From an uncultured Oscillospiraceae bacterium (GTDB taxonomy: Bacteria; Bacillota; Clostridia; Christensenellales; Aristaeellaceae): a DNA stretch of 64,000 nt. Both the position numbers and the translations under genes were made by a program. Location: NCBI GenBank assembly GCA_964497495.1, contig CAZCCZ010000002.1, positions 72,134 through 136,133 on the forward strand, written 5' to 3'. Under the pieces are notes generated by a model, which saw nothing but the letters and a program-made list of their open reading frames with translations, was not told the origin of the DNA and made no database searches. Every line of letters begins with the position of its first letter. Within the stretch, counting starts at the first letter, position 1. Positions 11,126 through 38,656 of this stretch are shown here, one piece after another.

Positions 11126-12613
11126 TCACAGATTGACCGCGTACTGCATAATGGCTTCCTGCGAAAGCTCCGCCTTTTCCAGCCTTCCGGAAATACGGCC
11201 TTCCCGCATGACGACGACGCGGTCGCTGATGTTGATGATTTCCGGAAGCTCCGAGGAGATCATGACGATGGCCATGCCCTGCGCCGCCAGTTCGTTCATC
11301 AGCTCGTAGATTTCCGCTTTGGCACCCACGTCGATGCCGCGGGTGGGCTCGTCCATAATCAGGATGTCCGGCCTGGCGGCGAGCCACCGGGAGATGACGA
11401 CTTTCTGCTGGTTGCCGCCGGACAGGTTCTGGATCTTGGTGCCGTACGACGCCGTTTTAATGGAAAGTTTGGCGACGTATTCGTCGGTGAGCGCCCGCTC
11501 CTGGGCGGCGTTGACGCTGAAACCGCGGATAAAGGAGCGCAGCACGCACAGCGTCAGGTTATACTGCACGGACTGAAAGCCGAACAGGCTTTCTTCCCGC
11601 CGGTTTTCCGGGATGAAGCCGATCTTTAGCGCGTAAGCCTGCGCGGGATTGCGGATTTCCGCCTGCTTTCCGTTGACGTAGATCTTGCCGGACGTGACGG
11701 GGTCGAAACCCAGAACGGCCTTCATCACCTCGGTGCGGCCCGCGCCCACCAGCCCGGCGAAGCCTACGATCTCGCCCTTGCGGACTTCGAAGCCGACGTC
11801 CTTCACGCTGGCGGACGAAAGGTTCTCCACCTTCAGCGCCACGTCGCCCGGCGCGTTGTAGGTGCGGGTGTAATAGTGCGTCATTTCGCGCCCGACCATC
11901 AGGCTTACGATCTCGTCGTTGGTAATGTTGCGAATGTCGGCCGTCCCGACGGACTGCCCGTCCCGGAGCACGGTTACGCGGTCCGCGATTTCCTGCAGTT
12001 CGGACAGGCGGTGCGAAATGTAGATCACGCCGATGCCCTGTGCCTTCAGCTTCCGGATATTGGCAAACAGCAGCTCGATCTCGTTGTCCGACAGGGAGGA
12101 GGTCGGTTCGTCCATGACGATGATGCGGGCGTTGAAGGATATGGCCTTAACGATCTCCACCACCTGCTGTTGGGCGATCGTCAGCCGGTGTACCTTCGAA
12201 AGCGCGCTGATGGGCAGACCAAGCCGGTCGATCAGCTCCTGGGCGCTGTCGTAAATCGCCGCGTAGTCCACGAAGGCGCCCTTATGCGGCTCGCGGTTTA
12301 AAAAGATGTTCTCCGCCACGGTCAGGTAGGGCACCAGAACGAGCTCCTGATGGATGATGCTGATGCCGTTGCGCCTTGCGGCGGGGACGCTGCCCACGTC
12401 CACGGGTTGCCCGTTGATGAGCACCTCGCCCTGATCCCTGGGGTGCACGCCGCCCAGCACGTTGATCAGCGTGGATTTTCCGGCGCCGTTTTCCCCCACG
12501 AGGGCCAGCACCTCGCCCGCCCGGAGCTGTAAATCGACCCCGCGCAGCGCGTAAACGCCGGGAAAGTGTTTATGGATGTTTTTCATTTCCAGCAGGTAGT
12601 TTTCCAAGGGCAA
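11126..12613 (-). CDS. rbsA: ribose/monosaccharide ABC transporter ATP-binding protein (two cassettes)
   Basis: Walker A GENGAGKST, LTIAQQQVVEI, and second-cassette signature LSGGNQQKVVISRWL. Confidence 0.92.
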   Translation of the reverse strand: MPLENYLLEMKNIHKHFPGVYALRGVDLQLRAGEVLALVGENGAGKSTLINVLGGVHPRDQGEVLINGQPVDVGSVPAARRNGISIIHQELVLVPYLTVAENIFLNREPHKGAFVDYAAIYDSAQELIDRLGLPISALSKVHRLTIAQQQVVEIVKAISFNARIIVMDEPTSSLSDNEIELLFANIRKLKAQGIGVIYISHRLSELQEIADRVTVLRDGQSVGTADIRNITNDEIVSLMVGREMTHYYTRTYNAPGDVALKVENLSSASVKDVGFEVRKGEIVGFAGLVGAGRTEVMKAVLGFDPVTSGKIYVNGKQAEIRNPAQAYALKIGFIPENRREESLFGFQSVQYNLTLCVLRSFIRGFSVNAAQERALTDEYVAKLSIKTASYGTKIQNLSGGNQQKVVISRWLAARPDILIMDEPTRGIDVGAKAEIYELMNELAAQGMAIVMISSELPEIINISDRVVVMREGRISGRLEKAELSQEAIMQYAVNL

Positions 12614-32828: not shown

Positions 32829-32857
32829 TTGACAAGCGCAACCCGTTCCTTTACAAT
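32829..32857 (+). promoter_or_regulatory. native tRNA-Arg promoter TTGACA-17-TACAAT, now orphaned
   Basis: TTGACA agcgcaacccgttcctt TACAAT, 17 nt before the truncated tRNA 5' half. Lies in GC-rich host-like DNA. Confidence 0.7.
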
Positions 32858-32869
32858 GGCTTTCGGCTT

Positions 32870-32916
32870 CCCTTGCGCCTATAGCTCAGCAGGATAGAGC
32901 GTCCGCCTCCTAAGCG
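32870..32916 (+). repeat. left direct repeat (attL-like), 47 nt
   Basis: Identical to 38163-38209 except C32879 versus T38172. Confidence 0.9.
32875..32916 (+). pseudogene. displaced 5' half of tRNA-Arg(CCT), positions 1 to the anticodon loop
   Basis: GCGCCTATAGCTCAGCAGGATAGAGCGTCCGCCTCCTAAGCG, after which the sequence diverges into AT-rich DNA. No T-arm or 3' acceptor strand. Confidence 0.85.
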
Positions 32917-33192
32917 TAGAATGGGCGCGATCATAACTGATTAGCACATTATTAAACAGAGAAGAATGGCGTATAAATATTCAGCCTGTGAGTTCCGTCA
33001 AGGAGCCTTTTTTATATTGCTGAACATGAATTTTTTGGTGACCATATAAGGCTAGCCCTCATCCTTACCAAGGGGCATTAAAAAGCATATTGGGCAGTAA
33101 AAAGACGAACTTTCGATGGACAGCACTGGCTATTAAAAATGGCGTTTCTACATTGTGTCTGTAGTACTCCACTCATTGTCTAATCTACAAAA

Positions 33193-34335
33193 TCACCTTG
33201 TTGAGCGTCCGCCTCCTTCTCCGGCTTCCTGTTGACAATAAGAATTGTTGTAATAATTTTCAAGCGTACTCCATGTGCGATTAATTTCAGCATTAAATAA
33301 ATCTGTATGATATTCTATAAAAGCAGAATCTTTGACACATGGATCAATGATATTAAGTTCTTTTCTATGTCCTGATGAACATGCACTCTTGATCCTTGTT
33401 GATAGTTCACTATCATTATTCATAAAAGTTTTTCCTACGAGCCAAATCTCTGAGGATAAAGAAAGCGAATCATTAAAGGCAGTGAGGTGAGTAGTCAGAA
33501 TACTGCTTTCATAATATATCTCTTCTTTATCCTTCACTGGATATATTAATATATGAGGAGAGACCCCATCATTATCTGGGCTTGGCAACCCATCTACCAG
33601 TAGATTATAATATACATCCTGTCTATACATGTTATAAAACCAATTCAATGAGCCATGAAGTTTGATCAATCTTACAGGATCTGAGTGTGGGTATTTTTTT
33701 GCAATATAAACCCCCTTGAATCCTAAATTCGAAAATGAACGCTCATCAAGTTTTTCCATGTTGAGTAATGTATAGTCTGCTATTTCATCATAATTAAAGG
33801 AAATGACTGTGTCTTCCTGTGAGAGCATTTGAAATAGTTTTTCATGGTATATGCAATGTCGGTTGTGCCCCAACGCTAAGAACATATAATTATAAAAATC
33901 ATCTGCAAACAAAGTTTGGAAATTCGTGTAAGCGATATATTGCTCAGCTAATTCTCTGTGCGTTTGAGCATATGTCAATATATTGTGGACAATGGGATAG
34001 TATGAAATATCAGTTGTAAAATTATATATATATTGGGGCATACTTAATATCATCTTTAAGGTTTCTTCTTGAAAAAAAACATACTTTGGTTCTATTTTAA
34101 CTCTTGCTTTTTCTATATAAAATAATGCAGTACAATACATTTCAAAGTCATTATCAACACCTGAATACACATATAACTCATTAAAATCCTTAATTAGTTG
34201 TTCATCTCTTTCTTGATAGTGGTTGTGTGTATTTGGCACCACTTTATGTAAGTCCTTGAGCAATGGAATTTTCATGGAGTTTGCACAACTACAACCGTAT
34301 GACGCACCAGCACCGAGTATTATAAGCTTTGACAT
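33193..34335 (-). CDS. stand-alone SIR2-like (SIR2_2/ThsA-type) domain protein, candidate NADase
   Basis: Ordered blocks IILGAGAS (aa 5-12), ISFNYDEIADY (N181-Y-D), IKLHGSLNW (H227-G) and IWLVGKTFMNNDSE (aa 297-310). SD AGAGGGA. Low-GC island cargo. Confidence 0.65.
   Translation of the reverse strand: MSKLIILGAGASYGCSCANSMKIPLLKDLHKVVPNTHNHYQERDEQLIKDFNELYVYSGVDNDFEMYCTALFYIEKARVKIEPKYVFFQEETLKMILSMPQYIYNFTTDISYYPIVHNILTYAQTHRELAEQYIAYTNFQTLFADDFYNYMFLALGHNRHCIYHEKLFQMLSQEDTVISFNYDEIADYTLLNMEKLDERSFSNLGFKGVYIAKKYPHSDPVRLIKLHGSLNWFYNMYRQDVYYNLLVDGLPSPDNDGVSPHILIYPVKDKEEIYYESSILTTHLTAFNDSLSLSSEIWLVGKTFMNNDSELSTRIKSACSSGHRKELNIIDPCVKDSAFIEYHTDLFNAEINRTWSTLENYYNNSYCQQEAGEGGGRSTR
33203..33217 (+). 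repeat. third att-like fragment (15-nt exact match to the tRNA core)
   Basis: GAGCGTCCGCCTCCT equals the D-stem 3' strand through the anticodon loop of the tRNA. Lies inside the last codons of the SIR2-like ORF. Confidence 0.7.
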
Positions 34336-34511
34336 AAGTATCCCTCTTTCTATTTTGTCAATTAAGTATATTGTAAGTTTCTGTTGGAAGCAAATGAAAC
34401 ATTATATGTTTGACTTTACCCAAAACGACCGTATTTGATAATTATCCATAAAATTAGGAATAGTGCTGAAAACAAGCAGATTTTAATATCAAAACCCATA
34501 TCATAAACATA

Positions 34512-34540
34512 TTGACATTAAACCCCGTATATGATACAAT
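34512..34540 (+). promoter_or_regulatory. serine recombinase promoter TTGACA-17-TACAAT
   Basis: TTGACA ttaaaccccgtatatga TACAAT. Confidence 0.65.
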
Positions 34541-34549
34541 TCATATATG
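34526..34549. promoter_or_regulatory. res/operator-like inverted repeat overlapping the -10 box
   Basis: CGTATATGA-tacaat-TCATATATG, 8 of 9 positions complementary. Confidence 0.4.
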
Positions 34550-34561
34550 GAGGTGTTCTTT

Positions 34562-35125
34562 ATGAAGCTTGGTTATGCAAGGGTTAGCACACTAGATCAG
34601 TCGCTTGATCGTCAGCTTGATAGTCTTAACGCTCAGGGCTGTGAACGTATCTATCAAGAGAAGATAACTGGTACAAAGGCGCATCGTCCAGAGTTGGATA
34701 GAATGATGGAAACCTTGCGTTCTGGAGATGCGTTAGTGGTTGACAGTTTCAGCCGATTGAGCAGAAGCACTAAAGACCTTCTTGAAATGGTGGATCGTCT
34801 GCAAAAGATGAACGTCAGCCTAATCAGTCTGAAAGAGAATCTTGATACGACTACTGCAACTGGCAAGCTGATGCTCACTATGATGTCTGCTTTAAGCCAA
34901 TTTGAGCGCGATATCATAGCTGAGCGAACGGCGGAGGGATTAAGAGCAGCACGCGCAAGGGGAAGGCTTGGAGGCCGTCCTAAGGCGAATACGAAGGCAA
35001 TAGAACAAGCTTTAAAGATGTACGATTCACAGAAGTTCACTATTCGGGAAATTGCTGATAGCACAAAGCTCAGCACCGCGACCATCAATAGGCGAGTGGC
35101 AGAGCGAAAGAGGGTTAACCCCTAA
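34562..35125 (+). CDS. small serine recombinase (resolvase/invertase family)
   Basis: MKLGYARVSTLDQSLDRQ catalytic-Ser N-terminus and C-terminal HTH TIREIADSTKLSTATINRRV. ATG 34562 follows SD GGAGG. Confidence 0.9.
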   Translation: MKLGYARVSTLDQSLDRQLDSLNAQGCERIYQEKITGTKAHRPELDRMMETLRSGDALVVDSFSRLSRSTKDLLEMVDRLQKMNVSLISLKENLDTTTATGKLMLTMMSALSQFERDIIAERTAEGLRAARARGRLGGRPKANTKAIEQALKMYDSQKFTIREIADSTKLSTATINRRVAERKRVNP

Positions 35126-35469
35126 TAATTGATTTGAAGTTGTTATGGGGGATGTTTACAAAAACCCCATTCAGCTTCTTTTTCATATACCTATATAGCA
35201 CTTTGAGAAAACAAAAATGAAGAAATTTTATTTTGAAGGTAATGTGGCAACGCGCCTATAATCATCCAATAAAACTCACAAGATACATGCAACCTGTGTC
35301 ACATTCTAATGATATATATAGATTGATCGTTTAATATATTGTGCTTCACTCCAACATAAGCATGGTTTGTGGGTAAATACCATAAAAACCCTTTGCTTTC
35401 AACGATTTTGGAATGAATTTGGATGATATTTGGATGTGAATGAAATGCAGAAAAAGTTTTGTTACCCTC

Positions 35470-35498
35470 TTGACAGATGATTTAGCATGTGATATATT
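35470..35498 (+). promoter_or_regulatory. promoter TTGACA-17-(TGa)TATATT upstream of the Rep-like gene
   Basis: TTGACA gatgatttagcatgtga TATATT, with an extended -10 TG. Confidence 0.55.
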
Positions 35499-35597
35499 TA
35501 TGTTTCCCCGACTAGGGGATAGTTTTATTTATGCTATTTTAGATTTGCTGACTAGAATAGCACATTATTCTGGGAATATGGTGAAGTTAGGAGGCAC

Positions 35598-36464
35598 GTG
35601 GAAAACCTTGAATCATTTCAATTTGAACCCTTTGTACACACATTTTCGTTTATAACAGAAGATATTGTTTATCAAAAAGGCGATACTGTATACAAACCAC
35701 AATACGTACGTAATATTTATCGCCATCCCGATTCGACAACGTTCACCATAAATCCAAATAAGGTATGTGGTGAGCTTCGTAGCATAAAAGCCTTGGGAAA
35801 GGCAATTCACTGCATTATGGATGACCTTGGTATTAGAAAGATATGTTTCACACGAATTGACTTTTGCTTTAACACCTGCGTAGATTTTGAAAAATGCTAT
35901 AAAATCAATGACTTAATAAAAAAACTGTACGGCCTAATAATAAAATCAAGAAATTCATATTATACCTTTGGAGATGATCATCAAAAACGCAGTACCAAAG
36001 TTGATCATAAATCATCTTCACAAGAAACCTATAATAAGAAAATAGAAAGCAACGGATGTTCCCCTTATAGCACACGGCTGGAGTTTCGCTTCTACCGTGG
36101 GAAACCTATCAGGGGTGTTGAAATGCTTGTACAACATCTTCGTACTGTGTTGATCAATCTACCTAAGTATTATAACGCATTGGTTGATCAGCATTATGAA
36201 TATCTTTGTGCTGCATATGAACGGGAACGACAAAGCGATTATGAAGGCCGTATATTATCTGTTGCAGAATTTATCACAAAGTATGCCAACTCATTCTTTT
36301 GTTATGAGCTGACAAAGAAGTTTTATAATCATTATCGTACTGGGTCATTTAAAGGTTGGCTGTGTGGTTATCGGAAGAAGCACGTTCTAACATTCTATGC
36401 CCCAAAAGATGTACAAGAATATTTATCTTTGCTTCAACGGTCACTTGATGAATATACAAAGTAA
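35598..36464 (+). CDS. Rep_trans-like replication initiator/relaxase (tentative)
   Basis: Blocks FVHTFSF, CFTRIDFCFN and ETYNKKIES..STRLEFRF resemble the D.L.FT / R.D.A.D / YDK..E...R.E.. pattern of PF02486 proteins. GTG start lies only 3 nt after AGGAGG, so the start is uncertain. Confidence 0.4.
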   Translation: MENLESFQFEPFVHTFSFITEDIVYQKGDTVYKPQYVRNIYRHPDSTTFTINPNKVCGELRSIKALGKAIHCIMDDLGIRKICFTRIDFCFNTCVDFEKCYKINDLIKKLYGLIIKSRNSYYTFGDDHQKRSTKVDHKSSSQETYNKKIESNGCSPYSTRLEFRFYRGKPIRGVEMLVQHLRTVLINLPKYYNALVDQHYEYLCAAYERERQSDYEGRILSVAEFITKYANSFFCYELTKKFYNHYRTGSFKGWLCGYRKKHVLTFYAPKDVQEYLSLLQRSLDEYTK

Positions 36465-36924
36465 ATAGAGTATTGACCACAGAACGCTAGTACGAACAGA
36501 ACTATGTACTGAAAGCGTTGTTACCTCTATGTTTTCATAATCCATCGTGATTGATGTTGTCTAATTTGTATACCTTAATATAGTTTGCAGTAACTATGAT
36601 ACTGTGCTTACCAATTCCCAGAACCGTCTTTCAGCAAGAAAATCGACTGCTTAATAATTATAATAATATAGATATTGAAAGAAGAATTTTATGGTAGAAA
36701 CTAATCCATCCAGCTTATTTGGAATGCAATTTTCTGGCCTTATGAATAATAATTTTGACAATATAAACAATAATGATTACAATAATATGGTATCTTGTTA
36801 TGCTTTGCTTGGACAAGCTTTTCTTGCTGGTTGCAAAATGCAAGCAGGATACGCCCAGAACCTTGACAATGGAATACCACAGGCTGATTTGATTCATGCG
36901 CCATTGACGGAAGGAGAATCCACA

Positions 36925-37980
36925 ATGGCAAAAAGGAAACAAAAACGTGTTGAAATTGATGGTATTACTCGTTGGGTATCTGGAAAAAACGAGAAGGATG
37001 TTTTTGAAAACCTTGTTCAGTTGGTGAGAAACACAGATTCTGGAACAACGAACACAAAGCAAGGTAAGCCGGAAGCATCGTTTCAAGAGTATACCAATAA
37101 CTGGTATGAGCTTTATAAGGTTAAGAAGATAAAGCATCGTGAACGACAGAACCATCAAACACTATTCAATAAACACCTTTTCCCATTCTTCGGGAATATG
37201 AAACTGTCTGAGATTGCTACAGACGATATCCAAAGGTTTTTTATTCAAAAGGATGATGAAGGGTATGCCGCCTCGACGATTCACAAGATGGATGTGCTTA
37301 TCAAACAGATATTCCGTTCTGCTCTTGAAGATGATGTTATCAGAAAAAATCCTGCTGATAGTGACCGTCTGAATTACAACGACAAAGAAGTCAAACGGAA
37401 AGCCTTGACTATGGGTGAAATGATAACGCTGTATCATTCGTTGTCCAGTCTTGTAAAACCGCAAGATCGTTTGTTAATAGCTATCCCTGCCTTTTCTGGA
37501 ACGAGAAGAGGAGAAACGCTTGCTCTCTGTTGGGAAGATATTGATTGGAAAGATCGAATCCTCCATGTTCATCAGGCGATTTCCTTTGAAAATGGCAAGC
37601 CACGTGTTGGCAAACCAAAAACCGACGCAGGTACACGTGATATTCCCTTGGATAATCGCCTTGCTTCAATGCTAGAACCACTCAAAAAAGAAACAGGGTT
37701 CATTATTGGGGATGGTTTTAAGCCTATTACAGAATGCACATATAGGTGCAGCTGGAAACGGATTAGTAAGGCGATTGAACTAAAGGGCACTACCGCACAC
37801 ACCTTACGGCACACATTTATAACCTTTGCGGAGTCATCAGGAGTTGATGTGAAAACGCTTCAATCTATCGCTGGACATGCTGATGTTGAAACAACCTTGA
37901 ATAGATATACGCATCAGCGAAAGGATATTCTCAAAGACGCAGGTCAGGTGATTGATAAAGTCTTTTCCCAGATCAATTGA
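36925..37980 (+). CDS. int: tyrosine site-specific integrase
   Basis: ATG 36925 follows SD GAAGGAGA. Catalytic blocks GTRRGE, HTLRHTF and GHADVETTLNRYTH. The N-rich 78-codon upstream extension of the ORF is discarded. Confidence 0.92.
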   Translation: MAKRKQKRVEIDGITRWVSGKNEKDVFENLVQLVRNTDSGTTNTKQGKPEASFQEYTNNWYELYKVKKIKHRERQNHQTLFNKHLFPFFGNMKLSEIATDDIQRFFIQKDDEGYAASTIHKMDVLIKQIFRSALEDDVIRKNPADSDRLNYNDKEVKRKALTMGEMITLYHSLSSLVKPQDRLLIAIPAFSGTRRGETLALCWEDIDWKDRILHVHQAISFENGKPRVGKPKTDAGTRDIPLDNRLASMLEPLKKETGFIIGDGFKPITECTYRCSWKRISKAIELKGTTAHTLRHTFITFAESSGVDVKTLQSIAGHADVETTLNRYTHQRKDILKDAGQVIDKVFSQIN

Positions 37981-38122
37981 AATGTGTCAGGGGATGTGTC
38001 AAGCACAAGTGCTTTCTAACCTAGAAAAATAAAGCGTTTGAGAGCGATACAATCCCTAAAAATGTGGCAAGGTTGGTGGCAATAGGATAAAAACGAGAGA
38101 AAACGCCCCTTTACCCTCCGCC

Positions 38123-38151
38123 TTGACATACTGGAACGGTTATCATACAAT
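38123..38151 (+). promoter_or_regulatory. element-borne tRNA promoter TTGACA-17-TACAAT
   Basis: TTGACA tactggaacggttatca TACAAT, 16 nt before the intact tRNA. Lies in AT-rich element DNA. Confidence 0.7.
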
Positions 38152-38162
38152 GATTTCCGTTC

Positions 38163-38209
38163 CCCTTGCGCTTATAGCTCAGCAGGATAGAGCGTCCGCC
38201 TCCTAAGCG
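38163..38209 (+). repeat. right direct repeat (attR-like), 47 nt
   Basis: Matches 32870-32916 with one mismatch. Confidence 0.9.
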
Positions 38210-38244
38210 GAAGGCCTCGCGTTCGAATCGCGATAGGCGCGCCA
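38168..38244 (+). tRNA. tRNA-Arg (anticodon CCT), CCA encoded
   Basis: Hand-folded cloverleaf: GCGCTTA / GCTC-AGCAGGATA-GAGC / TCCGC-CTCCTAA-GCGGA / AGGCC / TCGCG-TTCGAAT-CGCGA / TAGGCGC-G-CCA. One U:G wobble in the acceptor stem. Confidence 0.9.
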
Positions 38245-38247
38245 GCG

Positions 38248-38282
38248 AAAAGCCCGCAGATTGAAAGACTTGCGGGCTTTTT
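38248..38282 (+). terminator. intrinsic terminator after tRNA-Arg
   Basis: AAAAGCCCGCA-12 nt-TGCGGGCTTTTT. Confidence 0.75.
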
Positions 38283-38656
38283 ATTCGCTCAACCTGTTTA
38301 TCCGTTCCGATACCTTTCTTCATTACTATATCGATTATATCGGATCGAAACGCGGGCTAATAACCGCGGCTTTAACCCGGATAACCCGCTTTACTAAACC
38401 TGAGCAATGGGTAAATTCTTTGCTTGCGCGTTTCTGGAGCTACAGGAGGCGAGCGCCTGCTCACGGATGAACGCGGAAGATTATCCGGCGCTACCCTCGC
38501 AATTCGTGCCGGTAATTCGCGGCGGGGCGGAGGCAAGGGAACCTCCGGCTGTTTCTGCCGGAACCGGCGCTTTACGAAGACGACGGGTATTCCGGTTATT
38601 CCGCCCCGCAGCCCTGCGGGAAACCAGACCGGACGCAACCGGCCCCGGAGTGCGAA

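Follow-up and report, generated by a model that had tools for sequence, protein, structure and literature searches.

A 5.3-kb island interrupts the tRNA-Arg(CCT) gene of an uncultured Oscillospiraceae bacterium and appears, from its sequence, to have done so with a rare, reversed polarity, supplying its target gene with a promoter and a 5′ half. It spans positions 32917-38162 of the window, by which we mean the whole stretch of 64,000 nucleotides (nt) analysed here (GenBank assembly GCA_964497495.1, contig CAZCCZ010000002.1, positions 72,134 to 136,133 of the forward strand); all coordinates refer to that window unless a related locus is named. We put the probability of this reading as a whole at about 0.85.

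The two ends of the island are marked by a 47-nt direct repeat whose copies differ at a single position, found at the coordinates given in the initial annotation: the left copy (attL) at 32870-32916 and the right copy (attR) at 38163-38209, both on the plus strand. A near-identical repeat of this length within 9 kb is far beyond chance. Each copy holds 5 leader nt followed by tRNA positions 1-42 and ends in ...CTCCTAAGCG, 3 nt beyond the anticodon loop. The sole mismatch lies at tRNA position 5, which is C in the left copy and T in the right. If weaker flanking similarity is included, the repeat grows to 56 nt at 93%, and homology can be traced back to the -35 hexamer, where GCCTTGACA is common to both copies. 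Do both copies represent genes? ARAGORN, run across both, called only one tRNA in the 64 kb of the window, a tRNA-Arg(CCT) at 38168-38244 on the plus strand, which scores 65.4 bits with Rfam; the left copy, a displaced 5′ fragment, is truncated, runs into AT-rich DNA and was not called. The full cloverleaf is therefore confined to the right copy, as had been proposed. The acceptor stems differ too: GCGCCTA of the left copy is fully complementary to the 3′ strand TAGGCGC, whereas GCGCTTA of the right copy creates a U5:G68 wobble, and direct reading of the sequence confirmed this earlier observation. The guanine-plus-cytosine (GC) fraction is 0.30-0.48 between the repeats versus 0.58-0.65 outside them, recovering after ~38400, which bears out the low-GC insert described initially.

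Immediately inside the right end lies the gene (int) for a tyrosine integrase of 351 amino acids, at 36925-37980 on the plus strand. The protein has the catalytic domain PF00589 (8.8e-20), an N-terminal SAM-like core-binding domain (PF14659 at 3e-11, PF22022 at 1.6e-8) and a match to phrog_1 at 6e-64; the nearest solved structure is 6en0/6emy/6emz, 'Int protein', at E ~1e-20. Residues R194, K232, H292, R295, H318 and Y328 are invariant in a 16-sequence family alignment. Translation of int probably does not begin at the upstream ATG at 36691; the database protein P0001, 100% identical to the integrase, likewise has 351 residues. The gene is uninterrupted and is separated by 180 nt from the identity block downstream of it.

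We compared this arrangement with 80 metagenomic loci of more distant relatives and with three loci from the integrase homologues P0002, P0003 and P0008; the loci are designated by L numbers. Two pairs of short direct repeats follow the int stop codon in the window (37982-38081, plus strand): ATGTGTCA occurs twice, at 37982 and 37994, and ATGTGGCA and TTGGTGGCA form the second pair, at 38062 and 38073. We regard them as putative arm-type Int-binding sites of the element's attachment site, attP. The same two-pair layout follows int in L011, L012, L014, L017, L020, L022, L027, L035 and L047, with motifs specific to each element (TGTGGCA in L011, CTGACA in L012, TGTGATAA in L014, TGTGCCA in L047), and it is the same in both polarities of the integrase family. 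At the left end of the island, a search for P′-arm sites returned a single, unconvincing motif match at 33333.

The initial annotation noted that each tRNA copy has its own promoter, TTGACA-17-TACAAT, with a different spacer. A consensus scan locates the two at 32829-32857 and 38123-38151 on the plus strand, each with 11/12 consensus matches, and the spacers do differ. The left promoter stands in DNA of 58-65% GC directly after the aldolase terminator and would be the native host promoter of tRNA-Arg(CCT), now displaced. The right one occupies the same place next to int as the promoters of L011 and L015 and would be carried by the island and serve the intact tRNA. By manual count, the left spacer and leader have ~59% GC, the right spacer 41% and the right leader 50%; host-like composition on the left and island-like composition on the right agree with a native left promoter and an island-borne right promoter. 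Downstream of the intact gene follows the host terminator of the tRNA (38250-38285, plus strand), read from the sequence as a 9-bp GC-rich stem and then a T run. The segment to the right of this terminator, 38286-38420, has a GC content of ~45-50%, below that of the host genes, and contains neither an open reading frame (ORF) nor an Rfam match.

Is a promoter and 5′ half next to int a peculiarity of this one locus? The only close relative of the integrase among 5.8 billion proteins is P0002, at 60% identity, encoded at L011 on the 1.48-Mb long-read contig ctg24662l. There int, a tandem TGTGGCA, TTGACA-17-TACAAT and tRNA-Arg(CCT) follow one another on one strand, with 39-41% GC to the left of the tRNA and 50-60% to its right. 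The L011 tRNA-Arg(CCT), at 11243-11319 of that locus, has a G1:U72 wobble in its acceptor stem, the second such wobble in a presumed chimeric tRNA; the tRNA of the conventional locus L012 has a perfect acceptor stem without a wobble. In L015 and L023, whose integrases are 40% identical to that of the window, int is followed by a promoter (TTGACA-17-TATCAT in L015) and then by tRNA-Arg(CCG) in the same direction. The loci of P0004 and P0012, also examined, offered no usable tRNA context.

The usual orientation in the family is the opposite one. Counting was limited to loci with a tRNA no more than 600 nt downstream of int (n=17). In 15 of them the tRNA is convergent on int, which is the ordinary 3′-half arrangement, the targets being Arg-ACG (six), Asn (three), Met (three), Ala, Thr and Cys/Gly. 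In the remaining two, L011 (Arg-CCT) and L015 (Arg-CCG), tRNA and int are co-oriented. The reversed polarity claimed at the outset thus holds against 15/17 relatives with the usual layout: at the window it is the promoter and 5′ half of the intact tRNA that adjoin int. In a neighbour-joining tree the CCT, CCG and ACG clades each received 100% support and the relationships among them only 35-44%, which leaves room for one origin of the flip or for two.

Five related loci in which both repeat copies are visible allow the identity blocks to be compared with that of the window. In the Arg-ACG loci the block runs from tRNA position 31 (L012), 38 (L017) or 33 (L047) to the 3′ end plus 43, 44 and 43 nt, respectively; in the Asn loci it covers positions 29 to 75 (L022) and 31 to 73 (L031). 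The Arg-CCT block of the window covers positions -4 to 42, with the anticodon at 35-37. Viewed in int orientation, the end far from int coincides with the anticodon stem-loop in all six blocks, and the window is the mirror image of the others. Two further loci, L037 (~11180-11222) and L042 (~2050-2093), have only the 3′ part of tRNA-Thr(GGT) adjoining int and no full tRNA; an unintegrated attP would look like this.

The anatomy of the locus, its integrase family, the mirrored identity block and the fact that relatives repeat the layout are all directly observed, and from them we infer the rest of the mechanism. The region 32917-38162 would be a small integrative island, in a gut or digester host of Clostridia type, whose Int recombines at the anticodon stem-loop of tRNA-Arg(CCT). 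Its attP would be ordered as int, arm-type repeats, a sigma-70-type promoter, the leader and tRNA positions 1 to ~38, in sense orientation. The predicted attP then consists of the right promoter, the T5 5′ half and TAGAATGGG..., and the predicted chromosomal site, attB, of the left promoter, the C5 5′ half and GGAAGGCC.... Integration would displace the host promoter and 5′ half to the island's distal, left-hand end, where that promoter would now drive only the 5′ fragment and read into the island. The resulting tRNA would be a chimera, with promoter and 5′ half from island DNA and 3′ half and terminator from host DNA, and excision would restore the native gene. The crossover is best placed at, or just left of, the right end of the identity block, in the anticodon loop at 38199-38205. 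In a conservative site-specific exchange, DNA to the left of the crossover would be host DNA at attL and element DNA at attR; with a crossover at the anticodon loop, the left promoter and C5 fragment come out as native and the right promoter and T5 half as island-derived. Recombination topology, base composition and the C5:G68 pairing together point to the left copy as the native one, and that pairing, the GC contrast and the G1:U72 wobble of L011, with none in L012, agree with a chimeric expressed tRNA.

Across the family, the sequences conform to a common attP plan: int, arm sites, a tRNA piece and a putative crossover at the anticodon stem-loop. What varies is the tRNA piece, which in most members is the terminator and 3′ half in antisense and in the window, L011 and L015 the promoter and 5′ half in sense. 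The family comparison, with its putative anticodon-loop crossover and a tRNA piece inverted relative to int and the arm-type repeats, thereby supports the earlier proposition that attP must include a promoter and a 5′ half.

Several observations weigh against this reading. Neither an empty site, in the genome and metagenome collections searched, nor an excised circle was found. The flanking aldolase, looked up exactly, matched only a contig of 929 nt that ends before the promoter; a scan of the genome collection with the aldolase returned only relatives of 55-70% identity in other Clostridia; and the exact empty-site DNA pattern had 0 matches in metagenomes. An identical aldolase occurs in SRR8925774. 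Among homologues of the flanking genes, neither those of the aldolase (77-86% identical; L095-L100) nor those of the flavin adenine dinucleotide (FAD) oxidoreductase (81-86% identical; L101, L102) have an adjoining tRNA-Arg(CCT); synteny breaks at the tRNA in these nearest relatives, at 77-86% amino-acid identity. In addition, promoter-like sites are frequent in the AT-rich island (30 found versus 17.5 expected), and the promoter spacer of L011 resembles the left and right copies alike, at ~10/17 by manual count. Finally, the int region of L016 is 99.8% identical to that of L015 over the shared 1.9 kb and diverges just before the -35 hexamer, which may indicate that in that lineage the element ends before the promoter. 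At the divergence (L016 11236-11375 versus L015 1914-2055), L015 continues into its promoter and tRNA-Arg(CCG) and L016 into the start of an unrelated ORF; a different site, a deletion or an assembly chimera are candidate causes. We had considered the L011 spacer as a discriminator of the island-borne promoter and rejected it for its about equal likeness to both copies. Viral contigs yielded no match to the 5′-half pattern or to the integrase.

Could the island be a composite of more than one insertion? Its first 300 nt contain several short stretches that look like remains of tRNA genes. On the island side of the left junction, TGGGCGCG (32922-32929, plus strand) matches the tRNA 3′ acceptor strand plus discriminator at 7/8 bases, a likeness expected by chance in ~1-2.5%. 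An exact 17-mer at 33057-33073, on the minus strand, corresponds to the anticodon stem-loop of tRNA-Thr(GGT) in antisense; its right end lies no more than 1 nt from the identity-block end in Thr-targeting relatives (L037/L042 versus L040), and it looks like the fossil att core of a different target. A third partial copy of the tRNA-Arg(CCT) 5′ half, GAGCGTCCGCCTCCT, is an exact match of 15 nt at 33203-33217 (plus strand) that starts with the 3′ strand of the D-stem and stops halfway through the anticodon loop; the GC-rich C-terminal tail of a SIR2-like ORF is encoded there, and base composition would predict ~1e-4 such matches. In a control comparison of the window with 18 tRNA sequences, one 13-mer was the only other match of at least 13 nt, against ~2.6 expected by chance. 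Such relics suggest either that older insertions have decayed here or that int-attP modules were exchanged in succession, and they hint at past target switching.

Under a composite origin, 32917-33202 would be the remnant of an earlier element or of int-attP modules, and the unit of the present int would begin at 33218, after a degenerate older att core. The third 5′-half copy does end inside the anticodon loop at 33217, the SIR2-like ORF stops 8 nt after reading through it, and both this 15-mer and the Thr(GGT) anticodon stem-loop 17-mer are far beyond chance and lie less than 300 nt from the left end. Against this, the fossils are short and come with neither a second int nor arm repeats, and the 286-nt segment is island-like, at 39% GC, without a match to the other loci. 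We consider such an origin possible if somewhat unlikely; the polarity of the present junctions would be unchanged by it.

A second alternative concerns the point of exchange. Were recombination to occur at the left edge of the homology, at GCCTTGACA near the -35 hexamer or by a RecA-type process in the ~90 bp of homology, the native parts would be the right promoter and the complete tRNA, and the left spacer and 5′ fragment would belong to the island. That the homology between the copies reaches GCCTTGACA, that L016 and L015 diverge exactly before the -35 hexamer and that U:G wobbles occur in native tRNAs would all fit. Yet the left spacer is GC-rich and host-like, C5 complements G68, and the identity blocks of all relatives with both ends visible end at the anticodon stem-loop. 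Moreover, attP would still contain a promoter together with a 5′ half terminating at the anticodon loop, a content that makes sense only for a crossover in that loop. We judge a left-edge exchange improbable, and since attP would contain the promoter and 5′ half under either exchange point, the main conclusion about attP holds both ways. The weakest alternative, an assembly artefact or a partial tRNA duplication without mobility, may draw on the apparently metagenome-type assembly, with nearest proteins from metagenome-assembled genomes, but is very hard to credit: a single contig with consistent flanks contains both junctions, the integrase at the expected place is from a tRNA-targeting family, the repeat boundary falls at a canonical sublocation, and an independent 1.48-Mb long-read contig has the same gene order.

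How might an island that enters its target at the anticodon loop come to hold the front half of a tRNA gene? Returning to the reversed-polarity island, we offer one scenario tentatively, as a conjecture that we ourselves would sooner doubt than accept. A single integrase family would use the anticodon stem-loop in either orientation, and its sense lineages (Arg-CCT and Arg-CCG) would stem from capture in attP of a whole tRNA unit, with promoter, gene and terminator, whose unused 3′ part then decayed. If so, TGGGCGCG at 32922-32929 is possibly the relic of a whole tRNA gene once present in attP, and whole-unit capture would have left both this 3′ acceptor relic and a weak terminator-like hairpin at 32992-33016 (plus strand; 5-bp stem with 3 GC pairs, then a T run), which lies downstream of the orphaned promoter, ~75 nt into the island. 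The Thr(GGT) 17-mer at 33057-33073 and the Arg 15-mer at 33203-33217 would then record successive switches of target or module. The orphaned strong host promoter would transcribe a tRNA-like RNA lacking a T arm into the island, antisense to the SIR2-like gene, and the hairpin might halt this transcription.

The left fragment has a practical side as well. Together with TGGGCGCG, which is aligned with GCGCCUA, it scores 31.4 bits with Rfam at 32875-32929 as a tRNA without a T arm, exceeding the gathering score of 29. The segment could therefore be mis-annotated as a tRNA or pseudo-tRNA, a warning for annotation of displaced 5′ fragments.

The layout is rare but already catalogued, and the element is a new, well-resolved bacterial member of the 5′-fragment class. 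The Islander survey lists 159/3919 islands with a 5′ fragment versus 3760 with a 3′ fragment (Hudson, Lau & Williams 2015, PMC4383910). It recognises islands by a full tRNA gene (tDNA) and a fragment in the same orientation with an integrase between them, the 5′ fragment lying upstream (or the 3′ fragment downstream) and being terminal rather than internal, and by a length of 2-200 kb (PMC4383910). The window has a fragment of tRNA positions 1-42 located 5.3 kb upstream, with the integrase in between. It thus shares with the 5′-fragment islands of that survey the intact tDNA, the upstream same-orientation fragment, the internal tyrosine integrase, a size within 2-200 kb and an anticodon-centred site; there these islands are given as a count only, whereas here the promoter and arm repeats of attP and both polarities within one family are laid out. 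The end of the block at position 42 fits the anticodon-loop sublocation ('A', symmetric) of Williams 2002, as rendered in later citations of that paper, and the blocks of the relatives start at positions 29-38.

A further comparison lies within the family itself. Conventional members (among them L012, L014, L017, L020, L035 and L047 at Arg-ACG; L022, L031 and L032 at Asn), with integrases 28-41% identical to that of the window in the loci named, share int, the arm-repeat pairs, a tRNA piece, the putative anticodon stem-loop crossover and resolvase cargo. They differ in that their attP carries the terminator and 3′ half antisense to int, whereas that of the window would carry the promoter and 5′ half in sense. 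Two polarities in one integrase family, with the same sublocation and arm layout, make a natural pair for studying how attP orientation and target choice evolve.

Islands integrated at dusA supply a replacement 5′ end to that gene. The dusA-specific integrases, as portrayed by Farrugia et al. 2015 (PMC4482086), resemble the present one in entering the 5′ end of a gene; their target is protein-coding and they belong to a different integrase family. A review states that recombinant bacterial tRNA genes keep their original promoter with very few exceptions, and that the 5′ half is used by archaeal pTN3-like elements, a similar situation being seldom seen in bacteria (PMC8371274). The same review, citing Cossu et al. 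2017, describes pTN3-like elements of Thermococcales in which the 5′ portion of a tRNA gene serves as attB and the tRNA, once restored, is expressed from DNA of the element, as would be the case here. Those elements encode archaeal 'suicidal' integrases, with int split on integration and the tRNA expressed from the int promoter; in the window int (36925-37980) is intact, unlike those of the pTN3-like and SSV-type integrases, and a dedicated sigma-70-type promoter precedes the tRNA. Finally, the arg2 islands of Klebsiella pneumoniae (clade I.d integrases; bioRxiv 10.1101/2020.11.02.365908) lie upstream of a tRNA-Arg gene, unlike all others in that study. They are reported to use the D-loop sublocation, in a proteobacterial host, whereas the block of the window extends past the D-loop to the anticodon loop, ending at position 42.

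The window therefore offers a clean, well-delimited bacterial case of an island that would take over both the promoter of a tRNA gene and its front half, and for as long as the island stays integrated the host supply of tRNA-Arg(CCT) would depend on island DNA. Island finders that seek only 3′ fragments would miss such islands.

The remaining contents of the island are few. A protein of 380 amino acids with a SIR2-like region is encoded on the minus strand at 33193-34335; it was recognised by the PADLOC SIR2 models (best E = 9.1e-11) and had no Pfam match at E <= 0.01. This cargo gene is a possible candidate for anti-phage defence on a minimal island. Two ORFs on the plus strand, of 71 (35440-35655) and 288 amino acids (35598-36464), had no significant match in Pfam, PADLOC and PHROG profile searches. 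The island is flanked by ordinary host genes, on its left those for a sugar ABC transporter and a class II aldolase and on its right a pair for FAD oxidoreductases; their nearest relatives are in uncultured Clostridia, e.g. Candidatus Limiplasma at 77%. Between the SIR2-like gene and the two ORFs, a serine recombinase of the resolvase/DNA invertase type is encoded on the plus strand at 34547-35125 (PF00239 at 1.2e-44; phrog_125 at 1e-67), and resolvase genes recur in the related elements L011, L012, L014 and L103. Judged by their gene content, these relatives resemble one family of Clostridia elements that are small, integrative and possibly mobilisable. Three of them, L011, L014 and L103, also share an ArdC-N/MPTase gene, small helix-turn-helix proteins and ORFs of 140-170 amino acids upstream of int, and L011 additionally encodes a type I restriction-modification system.

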